From UHGV virus genome UHGV-1368742: DNA of 50,463 nucleotides; one strand, given 5' to 3'. Of the stretch, positions 25,705 through 47,028 are shown piece by piece. Position numbers and translations under genes: made by a program. Source of the stretch: a virus. The notes under the pieces are model-generated. The model was not told the origin of the DNA. It made no database searches and saw only the letters and a list, made by a program, of their open reading frames with translations. Each line of letters opens with the position of its first letter. Position 1 is the stretch's first letter.

Positions 25705-26013
25705 TTATGTTTGTTCTATATATGTTCTGTTTGTTGTTATTCTTGTTTTGTTGCTTTTCCCTGTTAGTTCAAAGTAAAACATACTTCCATGTGTTACATC
25801 CACTGGAACTGTTACTCTATCCTGTATAATCTCATTCGTTTGTTTTCCATCTACATCATAGAAACTTATAACTCTTTTTGTTTCTTTCCAGTCATTGTCA
25901 AAATGGAATACCAAACATAAATAATTATCAGAACCTCTTACAATGTTTTCAAAATCACATTGTTTGTTTCGTCTTAATAACTGACCAGCAACATCAAAAT
26001 GTAATTCTCTCAT
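25705..26013 (-). CDS. hypothetical fibre-associated protein (XkdW-like position)
   Basis: 102-aa ORF. Synteny only. Confidence 0.3.
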   Translation of the reverse strand: MRELHFDVAGQLLRRNKQCDFENIVRGSDNYLCLVFHFDNDWKETKRVISFYDVDGKQTNEIIQDRVTVPVDVTHGSMFYFELTGKSNKTRITTNRTYIEQT

Positions 26014-26270
26014 AAGCCTGTACCTCTTCTAATTATTCCGCTTGCCACTGTTCTTTCTACTGTTTCATCATGTTCTATATTCAATGGTTCTGAATCATAT
26101 GTTGCAAATACTGGATCTCTTTCTTCAATGATTGCCATACATAATTCTATTCCATTATATATTCCGCAACTATAATCATCACCAATGTTTTGTTCTTGTA
26201 TACCTCTTAGTTGTTTTATACTGTTCTTAACTGTTTTTAACTTCTTCCAACTTCTCAACATTCTTAACAC
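26010..26270 (-). CDS. hypothetical small protein (XkdX-like position)
   Basis: 86-aa ORF. Synteny only. Confidence 0.3.
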   Translation of the reverse strand: MLRMLRSWKKLKTVKNSIKQLRGIQEQNIGDDYSCGIYNGIELCMAIIEERDPVFATYDSEPLNIEHDETVERTVASGIIRRGTGL

Positions 26271-26455
26271 CTCCTATAAGCTTCTATTTACCGCTTATAT
26301 GCTATTTTTATTGCTTACCCTTACAACTCCTAACCATGCTTGCTGTTTGTCTTTATTTGCTTGATATCGGCTACTGTATATTGGTCTAACGCATACCACA
26401 AGGCACTACGTTTCTTCGATAGGCTTTTTATCCTACCCTCTTGCAGTTTCTATTC

Positions 26456-27199
26456 CTACAAGTCTAGCATACCTATTAACTTCTTATAATTTAGAATACG
26501 AACTTTATATTTCCCTCTCACTGTCCAATTCTTCTGAATAGCCTGTGTTATATTTACTTTTCCATTGAAGAATTTCATCGCTTCTGTCTTTGAATAGAAA
26601 TAATACTTTTTATGAGTTTCAATATCAGTTATAACGATTGAATGGTACATGCATTTTTTATTTATCTTTAACACTCTTTCTAAATTTGTATCTTGTAACA
26701 AATAATATTCTTTGCACCTTGTATTCAACCCTCTAAATGTTCTATGCAATTCATCCTGTGCTTCTTTCATATTTGTAAAAGCTCCTACAAAATTCAATCT
26801 AAAATCGTACACATAACACTTTCCTTTTCCATTAGCACCCCACATTTTCTCTACAGTGTTTTCATTAGCCATGTTTTCTTTTTGTGTACACCATCTAAGA
26901 TTGTTTGGTTTGTTATTCAGTTTGTTCCCATCTATATTGTCAACAATGTTTCTTTCTTCTGTATGACCTTTTACAAATGCATAAGCCATTAATCTATGCA
27001 CAAAACATTTTTTCCATCTTCTTTCACCTTGTAGCTTCAATGCTACCTGTTTATATCCACTACTATTAAAACTCTGTACCAATTCCATTCCATCTTTTCC
27101 ATAGACATTTCCATATTTGTCTATTTCATATATATCTAATACTTGTTCATATTCTGTTGCTAATGTATTTACTTTCTTTCTCTCATACATCACTGGCAA
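26456..27199 (-). CDS. free-standing HNH homing endonuclease (HNH_3 family)
   Basis: VHRLMAYAFV...VDNIDGNKLNNKPNNLRWCTQKEN matches the HNH_3 motif. Annotated start is TTG; an ATG 9 nt downstream has a better RBS (AGGAGG). Confidence 0.7.
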   Translation of the reverse strand: MPVMYERKKVNTLATEYEQVLDIYEIDKYGNVYGKDGMELVQSFNSSGYKQVALKLQGERRWKKCFVHRLMAYAFVKGHTEERNIVDNIDGNKLNNKPNNLRWCTQKENMANENTVEKMWGANGKGKCYVYDFRLNFVGAFTNMKEAQDELHRTFRGLNTRCKEYYLLQDTNLERVLKINKKCMYHSIVITDIETHKKYYFYSKTEAMKFFNGKVNITQAIQKNWTVRGKYKVRILNYKKLIGMLDL

Positions 27200-27271
27200 C
27201 CTCCTTTATAATATTGTCGCAATAGCTCTTGGGAACATTATTCTTTCGTCAGTTCCTATGCGTTGCACGTG

Positions 27272-27598
27272 TCAAACAGCCATACGCTGTAAGACTTCCG
27301 TTCTGGTCTGCATTTCAGCCTTTCCAGTTTTTTCTATCGCTTTATACACCCCTAGTCTTGTGGTATTTTTAAAGGTGTGAGCATCTATGTTAAATTCATC
27401 ATATATTACATTGCCTTTTGCATCCCTTGCATACGTTAAATCTTTCAATTCCTTTATTGTGTTTCTACACTTAGGAGAACATATAACCTTCTTAAAACGT
27501 TTTATCTTCTTTGTGTTCTGTAGTCTACTTCCCGCATACTTTTTACAAGCATACATATTGAATCCCTCTTGTCTATAATACTGTATTGACTTTGGTTC
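27272..27598 (-). CDS. terL: terminase large subunit, 3' exon (nuclease C-terminus)
   Basis: The frame is open from the stop at 27602 and reads [29 protein letters not shown]...[26 protein letters not shown]. This matches the TerL consensus ADSAEPKSI...AKKG.GS...C.N.I.EL..Y.W..DK.GN. The exact 5' boundary is ambiguous (27589 or 27598). Confidence 0.6.
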
Positions 27599-28439
27599 TA
27601 TTTATATTCTATGCGGTTCGCTACTCCGCACACGTTCTCTAATGAACTGCTGTAATTCTCATTACAGATTAGACTATATCTTAGCATTTCTGCTCCACAT
27701 GTTTCGGAACGCTTGTTCCTACTCTACTTACTTCCATTACATTTTCCATATCTAACATAATGTGTTTTCGATAGTCGTTGAATAGCTTGTTCTTTCGAAA
27801 GTTTTTTATATGAAAACAAATAACCTTTATGTTGTCTTTCTATTCCTCTACAGACATTTGCAACATGACTTCTATTAAATCCATCATAACTTGCTTCTGT
27901 TGTTGAAACATAGCTTCTAATATAATTCCCATCTAAATCATATTTATAAACTGTCTTCGCTAAACTCCAATTGTTATTCTCTCTAGGAGTTACCCAATTT
28001 AAGTTGTCTGCATTGTTATTCTTTCTATCTTCATCTTTATGATTGACATATTTTCTTTTTGACGTTCTCCCTTTTACAAACGCCAACGCTACTAACCTAT
28101 TAACACGCAAATAGTTTGTTTTATTATGTTTCGTTGTCAATGCTACGTTTAAATAACCGCCTGTCTTTTCATACTGCTTTAGCTCGTGTCTATTACTCAT
28201 ACTCACGTTCCCATGCTTATCTCTTAACGAAAATACTCTGCCATCATACGAAACATAATATCCATCATTTATATGTTCTAATCCTTTTATTTTATTTATT
28301 TGTTTTACTTTCATATATTTATTCCTCCGTTTACTTTAAACTACTACTGGTTGACTAATCCATTGAATTGTCACTCTATGGTATCAATGGCTCTAAAGTG
28401 TTTCCAGTATTCAATGTGGTTTTATGCGACCAAACCTTT
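27599..28439 (-). mobile_element. group I intron in terL carrying an HNH homing endonuclease gene (boundaries +/-10 nt)
   Basis: It separates TerL ...IYADAA(KG) from EPKSI.... It contains the conserved group I P7/J8-7-like element gcuAAGAUAUAGUCuaauc (plus strand 27640s-27660s). The 5' exon can end in U (GCU or GGU). Contains ORF 27724..28314. Confidence 0.5.
27724..28314 (-). CDS. intron-encoded HNH homing endonuclease (HNH_3 plus NUMOD-like C-terminus)
   Basis: LVALAFVKG...VNHKDEDRKNNNADNLNWVTPREN matches HNH_3. The C-terminus YDGFNRSHVANVCRGIERQHKGYLFSY is shared with the 40475..41569 N-domain. RBS GGAGGA. Confidence 0.75.
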   Translation of the reverse strand: MKVKQINKIKGLEHINDGYYVSYDGRVFSLRDKHGNVSMSNRHELKQYEKTGGYLNVALTTKHNKTNYLRVNRLVALAFVKGRTSKRKYVNHKDEDRKNNNADNLNWVTPRENNNWSLAKTVYKYDLDGNYIRSYVSTTEASYDGFNRSHVANVCRGIERQHKGYLFSYKKLSKEQAIQRLSKTHYVRYGKCNGSK

Positions 28440-29492
28440 AGCCGCATCCGCATATATTGGTTTATTACATCTTTCAGCTCTTTGTTTTGTTTTCCTTACT
28501 CCATCCAATAAAATAAATTTATTATCTGTTATATGGTTTCTGTATACTTCATCATAAATATAAAGTATTTTATTTTTATCATCTACTGCACAACTAATCA
28601 ACGCATTATAACTTGTTTCAAAACCAAAGTCCAAACCAAAGAAATGATATTTACTTGGTATGTTTGTTATTGTATTTGTAAATTGTTTTGCGTTTGTTGC
28701 AATCGTAAATTGTGGCAATACTCTTGTTCCACTTGCTCCGAATCTTCCCCACCTTGCAACCGTCCATAAATGCGGGTCATTTATCTTTAATCCATCCAAA
28801 CGTTTTATGTATGACACTGGCAAGAAAGGATTATCGTCTGCAATACTATGATGGTAATATACTCCATTCTTTTTGTTTACTAATGTTCTTCTCTTGTATA
28901 TCTCCTGTTCTTCCTGTATTACGTGTTCTTTTCCTTTATCATCTGTATGCGTAAAAAATGTGTTATATACCCAATTCTCTTTCCCTACTGGGTTTGTTGT
29001 CATAATAAAGTGTAATGACATTTTAGGCTCTCTGATACGTCCTAAAAGCTCTGTATAAGCGTCATAACGTATTTCACTACACTCTTCCATCCAAACGATA
29101 GAAACACCATGTATGGACTTTATTTTCTCTACATTGTCCATTCCTCTGAATATAATTCTGCTACCATTTGAAAATCTTACTTCCATTGGTGACATAACCG
29201 CTACAGCCTTTCCATTCTTCGGCAAGTGCTGATTAGGTAGCGATTCATCACTTAACATGTTCATCTTTTCTAGTATCTCTTTGAATAATGCAAAACACGA
29301 TTCTTTTATTGTTCCATATACCTGTCTTACTACCAAACAGGTTCTTCTTTCTTCTAGTAATTTTAATATGATTTTAAGTGCAACATGGTAACTCTTACCA
29401 CTACCATATCCACCGAATAAAAGGTACTGTTCATAATTCCAATCTGTTAAAAAAGTGGAGAATCTTTTTGAAACATCAATGTTTACATCCAT
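28440..29492 (-). CDS. terL: terminase large subunit, 5' exon (ATPase plus start of nuclease domain)
   Basis: Walker A LLFGGYGSGKS; nuclease start FGLDFGFETSYNALI; ends ...KPIYADAA. The likely start is MDVNIDVSKRF at 29492 (RBS AAAGGAG), not the upstream M at 29558. Confidence 0.85.
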
Positions 29493-29611
29493 GTTCTTTT
29501 CTCCTTTTGTTTTAGTTTGTTTGTAATAACAGAAAAGGACAGATACATCACTTTGCATCTGCCTTTCTGTTTGAATTAATTATACCATATTATATTTTGT
29601 TCGTCAATGCT

Positions 29612-29914
29612 TTACTTGAATATTTTATCAAGAACATCTACCATATTGGTCAACGTATCCATTGCCTCCATCATTTCTTCATATGATTTTCCATGCACTT
29701 CTTTCATGCATTCGTCCCTATGGTTAATCAAATTTTCAAGTGTTGCATTTTTCATCTTGATATCTTCTTTCTTGATTTCACTCATACAAATCACTGAACC
29801 GATTGCATTCATAATTGTTGCCTGACTTTCAAGAATAATATCAAGTTTGTTTTCTACTTTCTCAATTCTCTCTTCAACTGTTTTCTCATTTACTCTTTCT
29901 TTTCTTTCTTCCAT
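29612..29914 (-). CDS. hypothetical coiled-coil protein upstream of terL (position of a small terminase subunit; unproven)
   Basis: 100-aa helical, acidic protein. No HTH recognised. Confidence 0.3.
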   Translation of the reverse strand: MEERKERVNEKTVEERIEKVENKLDIILESQATIMNAIGSVICMSEIKKEDIKMKNATLENLINHRDECMKEVHGKSYEEMMEAMDTLTNMVDVLDKIFK

Positions 29915-29972
29915 TATTTTGTACTTCCTTTCTGAAATAAATGTTTGTTTTTCTTTTAGGCTTATGCCTAAA

Positions 29973-30045
29973 TGGATTATATAGGACTCGAACCTATAAC
30001 TTGCCGCTTATGAGGCGGTTGCTCTAACCATTGAACTAATAATCC
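29973..30045 (-). tRNA. tRNA-Met (or Ile2), anticodon CAU
   Basis: Minus strand reads GGATTATTAGTTCAATGGTTAGAGCAACCGCCTCATAAGCGGCAAG...GGTTCGAGTCCTATATAATCCA. Cloverleaf with a GTTCGAGTC T-arm; the anticodon loop CUCAUAA carries CAU. No encoded CCA. Confidence 0.75.
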
Positions 30046-30134
30046 TTATGTGTTGCTTTCATGCGCTTGAACATTACTCACAACACTTTAGCAAGAAAAG
30101 AAATTTGGTATGCACACCTTTTACAGTGTGCAAC

Positions 30135-30205
30135 TGCCTAGGTTGGATTCGAACCAACACATTAAGGAGTCAAAGTCCTTTGCCTTACCGTTTGGCTACT
30201 AAGCA
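30135..30205 (-). tRNA. tRNA-Gln, anticodon UUG
   Basis: Acceptor stem UGCUUAG/CUAGGCA (one G.U pair); D-stem GCC/GGC. Anticodon stem AAGGA/UCCUU with loop CUUUGAC. T-arm GUUGG-UUCGAAU-CCAAC. Confidence 0.7.
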
Positions 30206-30457
30206 ATACCTGTGTTTTAATGACTTTAACACCTGTCAAACTTTTCAGCAAGTTCCTTTGATATTTTAAAATCACTTCTTCTGTAACACTGTTCTGAATC
30301 TTGTCATCTTTATATTATCCATGTTGTGTTCACAATACTCTAAAAAGTTTGTTTGCGCTACTCTCATTGTTTTGTATACTCTAACTCTAACCATGTTTCT
30401 TGTTAATATCCTCTTTATCTGTTCTTTATTTTGTTCCCTTTGTTTCTTTCTGATTAT

Positions 30458-30486
30458 ATATTAACATAATCCCCTGCGTTTGTCAA
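30458..30486 (-). promoter_or_regulatory. promoter upstream of the tRNA pair (TTGACA-N17-TAATAT)
   Basis: Minus strand reads TTGACAaacgcaggggattatgtTAATATataat. The -35 overlaps the stop codon of gene 30483..30866. Confidence 0.45.
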
Positions 30487-30866
30487 CACTTTTTCTCGAA
30501 TTCATAATTCTTTTTCATTAAAGTTATTACTAGATGGCAAAAACCATCAATCGCATCCTTTTCTCTTTCTGTTCTACCATCTGATATGTTTCTCTTTATG
30601 TTCTTTAAATCTTGTACATACATTTCTTCTTTTGTTGCTTTTGTGACTTCTATAAAATTTCCCTTATATTCTACTCCCATAGATTCACAACACTGTAATT
30701 CTCTTTCATACGCTTGTCTGTATGCATCATACTTGCTTTTAGCTCTTAAATAATACTTTACTTTTTCTCCATTTGTCTCTGTTTTGATTTTATATGTTTT
30801 CATTTTGTTTCCTCCTGTTTTGATTTTATATGTTTGTTGTTCCTTAACTTGTTTATATAATAACAT
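30483..30866 (-). CDS. hypothetical protein; the true start is probably the second Met (MKTYKIKTETNGEK)
   Basis: A 19-bp direct repeat (acatataaaatcaaaacag) flanks the RBS GGAGGA. The upstream copy creates the in-frame duplication TYKIKT...TYKIKT. Confidence 0.4.
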   Translation of the reverse strand: MLLYKQVKEQQTYKIKTGGNKMKTYKIKTETNGEKVKYYLRAKSKYDAYRQAYERELQCCESMGVEYKGNFIEVTKATKEEMYVQDLKNIKRNISDGRTEREKDAIDGFCHLVITLMKKNYEFEKKC

Positions 30867-40474: not shown

Positions 40475-41569
40475 CTAAAATGTTTCTTCTTTTAGTTTTT
40501 GTTTTGATTTTGGTAAAAATCCATACATTGCAATACAATAGCTATCTGCCATATCATCATTTATTTTACACGGTACTTTCTCACCGCCTATTTTAACGTT
40601 TATAACGCCTTTCTTTCCCCTACCCTTATATTCCTCAACTATATACTTTAGAAGTCCTTTCTGCTTCAAATAGAGGATTGTAGGATACTTGTTTGGATTT
40701 ATTCCATATTTATTCTCTTTTGGTTTACTTGTTCCAACAACTGCATTCTTCCAACTTTTTGTCTCAACAGAATACACTGGTATACTATATGGATATAACG
40801 TATCTATTATTTTTACAATTAACCCAGCTGTAGATATAATATAGTCATAACTTATATGCCCTTGCGAATATAGTCTTATTCTCTCTACTATACAGATTGT
40901 ATTTCGTTTGTCTAATCTATATTCTCTTACTATTTTTGTTATCTTGTTTTCTATGCAACGCCTTTTATCTGCATTTGTTATACAATTTTCAAAGTCAACA
41001 GACCATATATCAACTAATACCGAATCGCAAACTAATGTTATTCCTGTCCGATTATAGCTTTCATCAATTCCAATTACATATTTTTCATTTGTTACATATT
41101 TAAAACTATATCCTTTGTGTTGATTTTCTTCACCCCTACAACAAGCACCAACATGACCTTTATTAAATCCATCATATACTGTACTATTAACGCTTGTATA
41201 GAATTTTCGTTCACGTGTTATATTATTCGTTGCAATCAAATGCTTTTCAAAAGAATAACATATATTTGCCCACTGTGTACACCATTCCAAATTATCCGCA
41301 CGATTATTTAATGGGTTTTCATCAAGATGGTTTACAGTATCATAAAAATATGGATTATCAATAAATGTTTTTGCAACTAAAATATGTATTTGATATTTTT
41401 TTGTTTTTCCATCTTTTGAAAGTTTTACTAAGCATCTACCCTTTTTTGTTATTTCTGGCTTCAATATCTTCTCTTTTTTCTTTGAAATATTTTTTACATT
41501 TCCAAAATTTGATACTTGGTAGATTCCCTCATATCCTTTTATATCTTTCCACTCTTCTATTTGATACAT
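40475..41569 (-). CDS. in-frame fusion: N-terminal HNH_3 homing-endonuclease module plus C-terminal RuvC-like Holliday junction resolvase
   Basis: N-domain: EEWKDIKGYEGIYQVSNFGNVKN (NUMOD4-like); IHILVAKTF...VNHLDENPLNNRADNLEWCTQWAN (HNH_3); YDGFNKGHVGACCRGEENQHKGYSFKY. C-domain: YVIGIDESYNRTGITLVCDS...NDDMADSYCIAMYG (RuvC-type). No start or stop codon between them. Confidence 0.65.
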   Translation of the reverse strand: MYQIEEWKDIKGYEGIYQVSNFGNVKNISKKKEKILKPEITKKGRCLVKLSKDGKTKKYQIHILVAKTFIDNPYFYDTVNHLDENPLNNRADNLEWCTQWANICYSFEKHLIATNNITRERKFYTSVNSTVYDGFNKGHVGACCRGEENQHKGYSFKYVTNEKYVIGIDESYNRTGITLVCDSVLVDIWSVDFENCITNADKRRCIENKITKIVREYRLDKRNTICIVERIRLYSQGHISYDYIISTAGLIVKIIDTLYPYSIPVYSVETKSWKNAVVGTSKPKENKYGINPNKYPTILYLKQKGLLKYIVEEYKGRGKKGVINVKIGGEKVPCKINDDMADSYCIAMYGFLPKSKQKLKEETF

Positions 41570-46685: not shown

Positions 46686-47028
46686 CTACCTTAGTCGTTC
46701 GTTTCCAAACTATCAAGGCTAGACTATATCTTCCACTACTGTGGCATTCGCACTTCGGAATGGTGCTTATCTCCATCCCTACCCCTGTTACTCTCTTCAC
46801 AAGCTAGTCGTTACACCTTTATATACATCTGTATACACTTGGCACGGTATTCCCTCTATCTCACCATCACTGGTTTAGGGTTTCTTAGTCAGATTATTCG
46901 TCTATGGTCTATGCCCTATTATCCTGTTGTAACATTTCAATAAGGAGTCTTATTTTTCTGATACCGTTAGCATATTATAATAATACACACCATTAAACAA
47001 TGTTCACGAATGATGCCCAATTAAGTTT
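46686..47028 (-). mobile_element. ORF-less group I intron 1 in dnaE
   Basis: 5' exon ends ...KKSLP with CCU; intron ends ...AAGGUAG; 3' exon starts GAU AUU GAC (DIDLDF). Contains a P7-like pairing cgACUAGc ... AAGAUAUAGUCUAGcc, which shares the AAGAUAUAGUC element with the terL intron. Confidence 0.6.

Follow-up and report, generated by a model that had tools for sequence, protein, structure and literature searches.

Two putative mobile group I introns with HNH endonuclease genes in the terL gene of virus genome UHGV-1368742

The large-terminase gene (terL) of virus genome UHGV-1368742, a stretch of 50,463 nucleotides (nt) called the window below, is very probably a three-exon gene on the minus strand, interrupted by two independent mobile group I introns that each carry an HNH endonuclease gene, as judged from its sequence and those of its relatives. 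An earlier note, drawn from the letters of the window, had proposed one group I intron with an HNH gene at this place. Intron-free alleles, covariation and a match to the endonuclease I-HmuI bear that proposal out, but it had missed a second intron and a second HNH gene.

Exons and predicted product of terL

The upstream TerL open reading frame (ORF) begins MDVNIDV... at 29492 behind a good ribosome-binding site and stops at 28424–28422 after ...IYADAAKGLVA, as the earlier note had read it. Downstream, a second frame opens at 27601 directly after a UAA (27604–27602) and runs to a stop at 27272. Pfam places Terminase_3 (E = 1e-57) and positions 1–40 of Terminase_3C in the upstream piece, and positions 60–145 of Terminase_3C in the downstream piece (exon 2), indicating that one domain has been cut in two; the note was therefore right that the downstream frame continues TerL where exon 1 ends. 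Its 3′ limit of terL at 27272 has to be given up, however: from 27371 the frame enters intron 2, the tail that the note had assigned to exon 2 (KNTTRL...MAV, then stop) is 32 codons of read-through into that intron, and the true last exon is exon 3 (Table 1). The first 15 codons of exon 2 include an invariant E-P-K, and no start codon is present between the UAA and these codons.

Joining the three exons in silico gives 1359 nt encoding 452 amino acids (aa), with predicted junction sequences GATGCGGCTGAACCAAAG and CACACCTTTAGTGCC. The joined sequence aligns without gaps to the intron-free allele L023, with 92.8% nt identity and 443 of 453 aa positions identical (stop included). An alignment of the joined protein to TerL homologues, which the note had proposed as a check, likewise has no gaps against L023 or against the intron-free TerL of Anoxybacillus phage A403, phiCp-D and CB452P1, the last three running unbroken across ADAA↓EPK (arrows mark boundaries between exon and intron); D349, A351, E352, P353 and K354 are invariant in the alignment with these three. 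A search for an intron-free allele with exactly the flanks of the window (GCGGATGCGGCTGAACC) returned only unrelated chance matches, and no intron-free terL in IMG/VR matched the 17-nt core of the first junction.

The spliced TerL would contain the motifs GLDFGF, ADAAEP and DAHTFSALWYALD, which align to GLDFGY, ADSSEP and DNHTIDATRYAFE of the SPP1 G2P nuclease (2WBN). A large terminase of the Terminase_3/SPP1 G2P type, with an ATPase and a complete RNase H-like nuclease bearing its acidic motifs, is obtained only when both introns are removed. Intron 1 is inserted within the motif ADAA↓EPK, which aligns to ADSSEP of SPP1, and intron 2 within HTF↓SALWY, which aligns to HTIDATRY (G2P, ...HTIDATRYAFE). 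Homing elements typically sit inside conserved motifs, as both terL introns do.

Table 1. Features of the terL locus in the window (positions of the whole stretch)
Feature	Position	Strand	Description
terL exon 1	28440..29492	−	351 codons, M1–A351; ATPase domain plus beginning of nuclease domain; last codons GAU GCG GCU
terL exon 2	27372..27598	−	227 nt; E352...H-T-F (first two bases); middle of nuclease domain
terL exon 3	26330..26408	−	79 nt including stop; (F)SALWYALDQYTVADIKQIKTNSKHG, stop
Intron 1	27599..28439	−	841 nt; td-like (IA2-type) group I intron; HNH ORF in P6 loop
Intron 1 internal guide sequence	28426..28436	−	GGUUU-GGUCGC
Intron 1 P7 5′ strand	27772..27776	−	GACUA; includes G of guanosine-binding G-C pair
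Intron 1 J8/7 and P7 3′ strand	27672..27682	−	AAGAUAUAGUC; aligned to Rfam Intron_gpI consensus
Intron 1 omega position	27599	−	A, where group I introns normally have G
HNH ORF 1	27724..28314	−	196 aa, I-HmuI family; in intron 1 P6 loop; GGAGG 8 nt upstream of ATG
Intron 2	26409..27371	−	963 nt; second group I intron; HNH ORF in P8 loop
Intron 2 internal guide sequence	27347..27356	−	ACUA-GGGGUG; pairs with both exon ends
HNH ORF 2	26456..27190	−	244 aa, I-HmuI-like; in intron 2 P8 loop

Limits and folds of the two introns

At the site of intron 1 the window reads ...GAU GCG GCU↓AAAGG...AAAUA↓GAA CCA AAG, and intron-free alleles read GAT-nnn-GCN↓GAR-CCN-AAR without interruption. The boundary cannot slide, because the bases flanking each boundary differ, and the insert is therefore exactly 28439–27599. 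Of the two junctions between which the earlier note had wavered, GCU↓...A↓GAACC agrees with the intron-free alleles and with helix P1, while GGU↓...AAG↓UCA fits neither and would cost TerL the invariant E-P-K.

Comparison of twelve copies (alignment A3) yielded a fold of intron 1 comprising P1, P3, P4, P5, P5a, P6, P7, P7.1, P7.2, P8, P9.0, P9, P9.1 and P9.2, and lacking P2. Specifically, P1 is formed by GCGGCUAA/UUGGUCGC with a U·G pair at the splice site, P3 by CCACAU/AUGUGG and P6, which encloses the HNH ORF, by AGUAGUU/AGCUAUU, while J8/7 reads AAGAUA. The internal guide sequence is complementary to both exons, GGUCGC pairing with GCGGCU of exon 1 (P1) and GGUUU with GAACC of exon 2 (P10, 5 bp, contiguous with P1). 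Checked separately, P1 tracks the exon codon: GCG/CGC, UCG/CGA and AGU/ACU occur, and all three variants are fully paired. Across A3, 99.3% of cells are paired and 24 of 74 pairs have changed on both sides, a count reached in 0 of 500 shuffles, with slid controls giving 1–5. The MAFFT alignments misregister P1 (outer pairs), P4, P6b, P8 and P9.1 in some rows, so that these counts are conservative.

In the core of intron 1, the 5′ strand of P7, GACUA, does not vary among 12 relatives and has UAGUC at 27676–27672 as its partner; P7.1 (9 bp) shows one-sided changes only, and P7.2 (5 bp) has three compensatory pairs. Michel and Westhof (1990) reportedly defined subgroup IA2 by two additional helices, P7.1 and P7.2, that fall between P7 and P3′; as read from its sequence, intron 1 has both in that place. 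Minimum free energy (MFE) folding of the 3′ 202 nt of intron 1 alone recovered P7, P7.1, P7.2, P8, P9, P9.1 and P9.2 (z = −1.7). The element GCUAAGAUAUAGUCUAAUC, which the note had likened to a group I P7/J8-7 core, is present at about 27684–27666 and aligns to the Rfam Intron_gpI consensus. A total of 239 phage records contain this core element, which is spread over many genes; one of these records is annotated intron_gpI.

The limits of intron 2 were taken from intron-free alleles that read HTF↓SALWY uninterrupted. After ...NIDxHTF, the TerL of relatives continues either with SALWYALDQYTVADIKQIKTNSKxG and a stop, the canonical ending conserved in A403, phiCp-D and CB452P1, or with an altered tail, which among close relatives is found exactly when a 244-aa HNH gene follows; the window encodes the canonical ending downstream of HNH ORF 2, at 26408–26330. 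The intron has U at −1 (ACCUU↓U) and G at omega, its last position (AAACG↓UAGUGCC), and all 22 copies end in G before UAGUGC. Its P1 is CACCUU/GGGGUG with a U·G pair at the site, its P10 is UAGU/ACUA, and its other helices are P3 (GCGAUAG/CUAUUGC), P4, P6, P7 (GCAUA/UAUGC), one P7.2-like hairpin, P8, which encloses the ORF, P9 and P9.1. In an alignment of 18 copies (A4), 96.5% of cells are paired and 15 of 53 pairs have changed on both sides, against 1–4 in slid controls. P1 itself is compensatory, CACCUU/GGGGUG in 3 sequences versus CACGUU/GGCGUG in 15, and the change falls on a synonymous Thr codon.

An ORF-less, 236-nt form of intron 2 occupies the identical terL site in L010/L071 (the same contig; L010:10990–11225). 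It retains P7 as GACUA/UAGUC and J8/7 as AAUAGA, and a 4-bp P8 hairpin replaces the 740-nt ORF loop. By sequence and fold, intron 2 is a second group I intron.

Several results weigh against this reading of the two inserts. The search with Rfam group I models that the note had advocated succeeded in part: Intron_gpI matches the 3′ half of intron 1 at 27800–27650 when a 216-nt slice is searched (30.7 bits, E = 2e-6, model positions 109–253), but no match reaches the RF00028 gathering score of 50, and intron 1 is visible only in such a narrow slice, a 4.5-kb search (26000–30500, E ≤ 10) being silent on it and returning two tRNAs only. The score of intron 1 is probably lowered by the 590-nt ORF in P6 and by peripheral helices of the IA2 type. 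Intron 2 has no Rfam match at all (27190–27390, E ≤ 10), nor does the contiguous 236-nt mini-intron match RF00028 at E ≤ 1; membership of intron 2 therefore rests on anatomy and comparison rather than on a curated model. In addition, few lineages contribute to the covariation, the alignments that include the ORFs take no account of structure and misregister some helices, and the MFE z-scores are modest (−1.7 and −2.3).

The two tRNA genes lie upstream of terL, at 29973–30045 and 30134–30205 on the minus strand, and score 67 bits each against the Rfam tRNA model.

On a reading without splicing, free-standing HNH genes would have broken terL up into three pieces, each translated on its own, and the products would come together as an active terminase, as happens with some split phage genes. 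This reading can appeal to a Shine-Dalgarno-like GAGGGA 7 nt before the AUG of MYACKK (27556), to an in-frame UUG that precedes GAA in relatives whose intron 1 ends in G, and to the GenBank annotators, who called the terL pieces as separate coding sequences (CDSs) in Clostridium phages CS266P1-4 and Dulem virus 36. Neither codons 352–366 of exon 2 nor any part of exon 3 (SALWYALD...), however, has a start codon or ribosome-binding site that could serve, although both stretches match invariant TerL positions. Furthermore, the flanks of both HNH ORFs form co-varying group I helices with guide sequences that match the exon ends, and insert 2 is still found at its site in a form that has no ORF. 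We therefore consider separate translation very improbable.

Inteins, group II introns and insertion sequences such as an IStron were considered because these too interrupt phage genes, and nothing specific speaks for any of them. Both inserts contain stop codons in the terL frame, so neither is an intein; each encodes an HNH ORF only, with no reverse transcriptase or transposase, and the helices and J8/7-P7 core are of the group I type. We regard these alternatives as negligible and keep to two group I introns as by far the best account of the inserts.

The last base of intron 1

The terminal base of intron 1 is A in the window, in two further uncultivated genomes (L015 and L100) and in the cultured Clostridium phage CS266P3, a lineage that occupies at least two terL backgrounds, and G in nine other copies. 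The earlier note had been concerned that no omega-G is left at this junction, and intron 1 of the window indeed lacks the terminal G of group I introns. It is homologous to canonical group I introns and departs from them at the omega position alone. Restoring the intron-free reading frame means that intron 1 of the omega-A lineage would be excised after the A.

The A at 27599 also tells against the intron reading, as the P7 G-C pair stays unchanged. In Tetrahymena, work by Michel (1989) and by Been and Perrotta (1991) is said to have established that the P7 G-C pair specifies G and that mutation of omega-G blocks exon ligation; in G414 mutants, ligation is reportedly strongly impaired unless the binding-site G-C pair has been altered as well. 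A switch of the P7 pair from G-C to A-U was considered as an explanation for omega-A and rejected, P7 being invariant. Other Gs as the 3′ splice site (CAUAG↓, or UAG↓AACC with the canonical 5′ site) were rejected too: they produce frameshifts, and the gapless alignment to L023 excludes a compensating indel.

Two pairings could bear on 3′ splice-site choice. P10 comprises 5 bp with two G-C pairs (GGUUU/GAACC) in the omega-A lineage, versus three weak pairs in omega-G copies; in CS266P1, an omega-G copy, four of the five pairs form, as judged by eye. P9.0 co-varies, AU/AU versus AA/UU, in the register that places A at omega. The 5-bp P10 may thus compensate for the missing omega-G. It is possible, and we put it forward tentatively, that the omega-A lineage splices correctly with an unchanged P7 G-C pair, the extended P10 and P9.0 positioning the 3′ splice site. 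CS266P3 is a propagated isolate and the lineage is found in diverged terL backgrounds, and we therefore argue that the omega-A intron functions somehow.

A different outcome would be that omega-A intron 1 is not spliced at GCU↓...A↓GAA. Both sites might be shifted one base downstream (GCUA↓...UAG↓AACC), which would give a canonical omega-G at the cost of an A-U pair at the 5′ site and of E352K in TerL, or exon ligation might be largely defective, with the phage surviving on a trickle of correct product. The shift has some appeal, in that the base after the omega A is G, the guide sequence fits the shifted register too (A-U, then AACC/GGUU), and natural exceptions to U at −1 have been reported (bioRxiv 10.1101/2020.01.27.920355). 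E352, however, which shifted sites would turn into K, is the same residue in every intron-free allele examined and in the ADSSEP of SPP1 G2P. The U·G wobble of P1 is kept in every intron-containing allele, Ala351 being GCU in all of them and GCA in most intron-free alleles. Together with the P9.0 covariation, which fits the unshifted register, and the presence of the omega-A intron in four genomes, one of them that of an isolated and propagated phage, these observations make shifted or defective splicing unlikely.

A search of metagenomes and genomes for further omega-A introns (pattern AGTAGCGAACCGCATAGAA) gave one relevant match, L100, and four chance matches. A literature search for natural omega-A introns, for non-G omega or for G414 mutants found nothing usable. 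The omega-A lineage is the only feature of the locus for which no description was found in the literature.

Endonuclease genes, relatives and mobility

The earlier note had described an HNH_3 ORF with its own ribosome-binding site, and HNH ORF 1 answers to this description, with a Pfam HNH_3 score of 30.3 bits (cut-off 24.8) and weak matches to NUMOD1/4 and I-HmuI_NUMOD-like domains. It matches I-HmuI (PDB 1U3E) with E = 3.4e-9 over residues 18–170, and its 3′ end runs through P6′, J6/7, P7 and P7.1. HNH ORF 2, a paralogue with 33% identity to ORF 1, scores 38.3 bits for HNH_3 (cut-off 24.8) and 23.4 for NUMOD1 (cut-off 22.8). The HNH motif is NHKD in ORF 1 and DNID in ORF 2 of the window (VDNI codons, about 26906–26917), while all 16 aligned relatives in A4, including the 99%-identical L017, have DHID, so that the change from H to N is unique to the window. 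From the motif, the replaced residue would be the catalytic His, and the window's copy of HNH ORF 2 may be catalytically dead.

A small hairpin (GUUUA AAG UAAAC, 28325–28337, minus strand) stands directly upstream of the GGAGG of HNH ORF 1 and overlaps distal P6 pairs. It co-varies, reading GCUU...AAGC in Dulem virus 36 (by eye), and could gate translation of HNH ORF 1.

Catalysis, endonuclease activity and the target of the endonucleases are inferred, the textbook group I splicing mechanism being assumed (PMC3679873). Each ribozyme would fold after transcription, its guide sequence pairing with the end of the upstream exon to form P1 with U·G at the splice site. Free guanosine bound at the P7 G-C pair would then cleave the 5′ splice site, and P10 and P9.0 would bring in the downstream exon for ligation, the product being an mRNA for the 452-aa TerL that is colinear with alleles lacking the introns. 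Each HNH enzyme would be made from a ribosome-binding site of its own; when a relative with an intron-free terL co-infects, the enzyme would nick or cut that allele close to the insertion site, and repair would copy the intron together with some flanking exon.

The same terL interruption is present in five GenBank phages, CS266P1-4 and Dulem virus 36 (OP172775-OP172778 and PP511521; L001-L003). Dulem virus 36 has intron 1 only and is annotated as terminase, endonuclease and a second terminase that starts at an in-frame UUG; exon 2 is a 'hypothetical protein' in the CS266P phages, and exon 3 is unannotated in both CS266P records inspected (CS266P1 and CS266P3). IMG/VR contributes nine further loci with the interruption. 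Seven are full-length copies found on new contigs (L015 and L008-L012, L014, L016), and L013 is truncated at its 5′ end. IMG/VR also holds uninterrupted alleles of the same terL with up to 99% aa identity (L017, L018 and L023; L017 is 99% and L023 97.8% identical). All four combinations of presence and absence of the two introns are seen among related alleles.

Intron and exon histories differ. The exons of CS266P3 and CS266P1 are 97–99% identical, and their intron 1 copies only 76.5%; conversely, intron 1 of CS266P3 is 90.6% identical to that of the window, with exons only 72–77% identical. This mismatch indicates that intron 1 has been exchanged between terL backgrounds. At the level of sequence comparison, the alleles thus document the insertion points, the folds, the co-variation of guide and exon, the patchy distribution and the horizontal exchange of intron 1.

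A study of Bastillevirinae Bacillus phages (PMC11878797) describes group I introns in terL, mostly IA2/IA3-like, in which a loop carries an ORF for an HNH or another nuclease; two or three such introns are present in some of these terL genes. Splicing was shown in vitro for SIOphi terL and in vivo for all fragments tested, including the SIOphi and phiAGATE terminase genes, and in the text consulted omega-A is not described. The window resembles these cases in host gene, element type and nuclease ORF in a loop; it belongs to a different phage group, being from a phage of about 50 kb and 33% GC related to Clostridium phages CS266P1-4. The intron-encoded nicking enzyme I-HmuI from the DNA polymerase intron of Bacillus phage SPO1 (1U3E) aligns with ORF 1, likewise intron-encoded, over nearly its full length; its host gene and target differ from those of the window ORFs.

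A further counterpart is the portal gene of Pectobacterium phage PP90 (KX278419, L004), whose intron is about 70% identical in nt to the 3′ core of intron 1. On one side of this core is an HNH gene and on the other the second fragment of the split portal gene, as in the layout of intron 1, and Rfam Intron_gpI matches its full model at 1896–2580 with 30.5 bits. PP90 differs in the interrupted gene, in its Gram-negative hosts and in the position of the ORF, which is in P8 by the Rfam alignment. In the PP90 record the portal appears as two CDSs, orf38 and orf40, each named 'head to tail connecting protein', with the HNH gene orf39 between them, and among the matches listed the intron is unannotated under the match in PP90 and in related Phimunavirus records.

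The T4 td intron, an IA2 intron with the I-TevI ORF in P6, presumably shares with intron 1 the ORF in P6, P7.1/P7.2 between P7 and P3′, and the stretches AACGACUAUC ... GAGUAGG..CAAG...GAAAC ... AGAUAUAGUC, followed by the P9 hairpin. Intron 1 is presumably unlike td in having no P2, in carrying an HNH rather than a GIY-YIG ORF and in residing in another host gene, and td ends in G. Lactobacillus phage LL-H is also said to have a terL group I intron, attributed to Mikkonen and Alatossava in 1995.

Elsewhere in the window, a probable third group I intron (46686–47028, minus strand; 343 nt, ORF-less) splits a dnaE-like (PHP/Pol III alpha) gene. It lies between ORFs 48222–46993 and 46586–45576, exon A ending ...KKSLP (CCU↓), and has P1 UGCCU/GGGCA and the P7 core GACUA ... 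GGAAGAUAUAGUCUAGCC, with a 3′ end GGUAG↓ before GAU AUU GAC (DIDLDFERDRRQEV...); it had no Rfam match at E ≤ 1. A third I-HmuI-like HNH paralogue is encoded at 40475–41569 on the minus strand (tblastn E = 3e-17 to ORF 1), as the N-terminal half of a single 364-aa ORF whose C-terminal half looks RuvC-like (VIGIDESYNRTG...DDMADSYCIAMYG). Either the two halves are genuinely fused, or a homing endonuclease gene has run on into the gene that follows it.

The locus represents a familiar class of selfish element that had not yet been annotated in this phage group. terL is here to be annotated as one 452-aa protein, not as separate CDSs as deposited for CS266P1-4. Because searches based on Rfam overlook these introns, gut phage catalogues probably contain more such terL genes with two introns than have been called. 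If omega-A splices accurately, it would relax a near-absolute rule of group I catalysis and provide a natural system for how P10 and P9.0 substitute for omega-G recognition; CS266P3 (omega-A) and CS266P1 (omega-G), with near-identical exons and the same host, allow a direct comparison. For two sites in conserved motifs of one essential gene, the related alleles preserve a natural history of how introns were gained and lost, how an ORF disappeared and how an intron was swapped.

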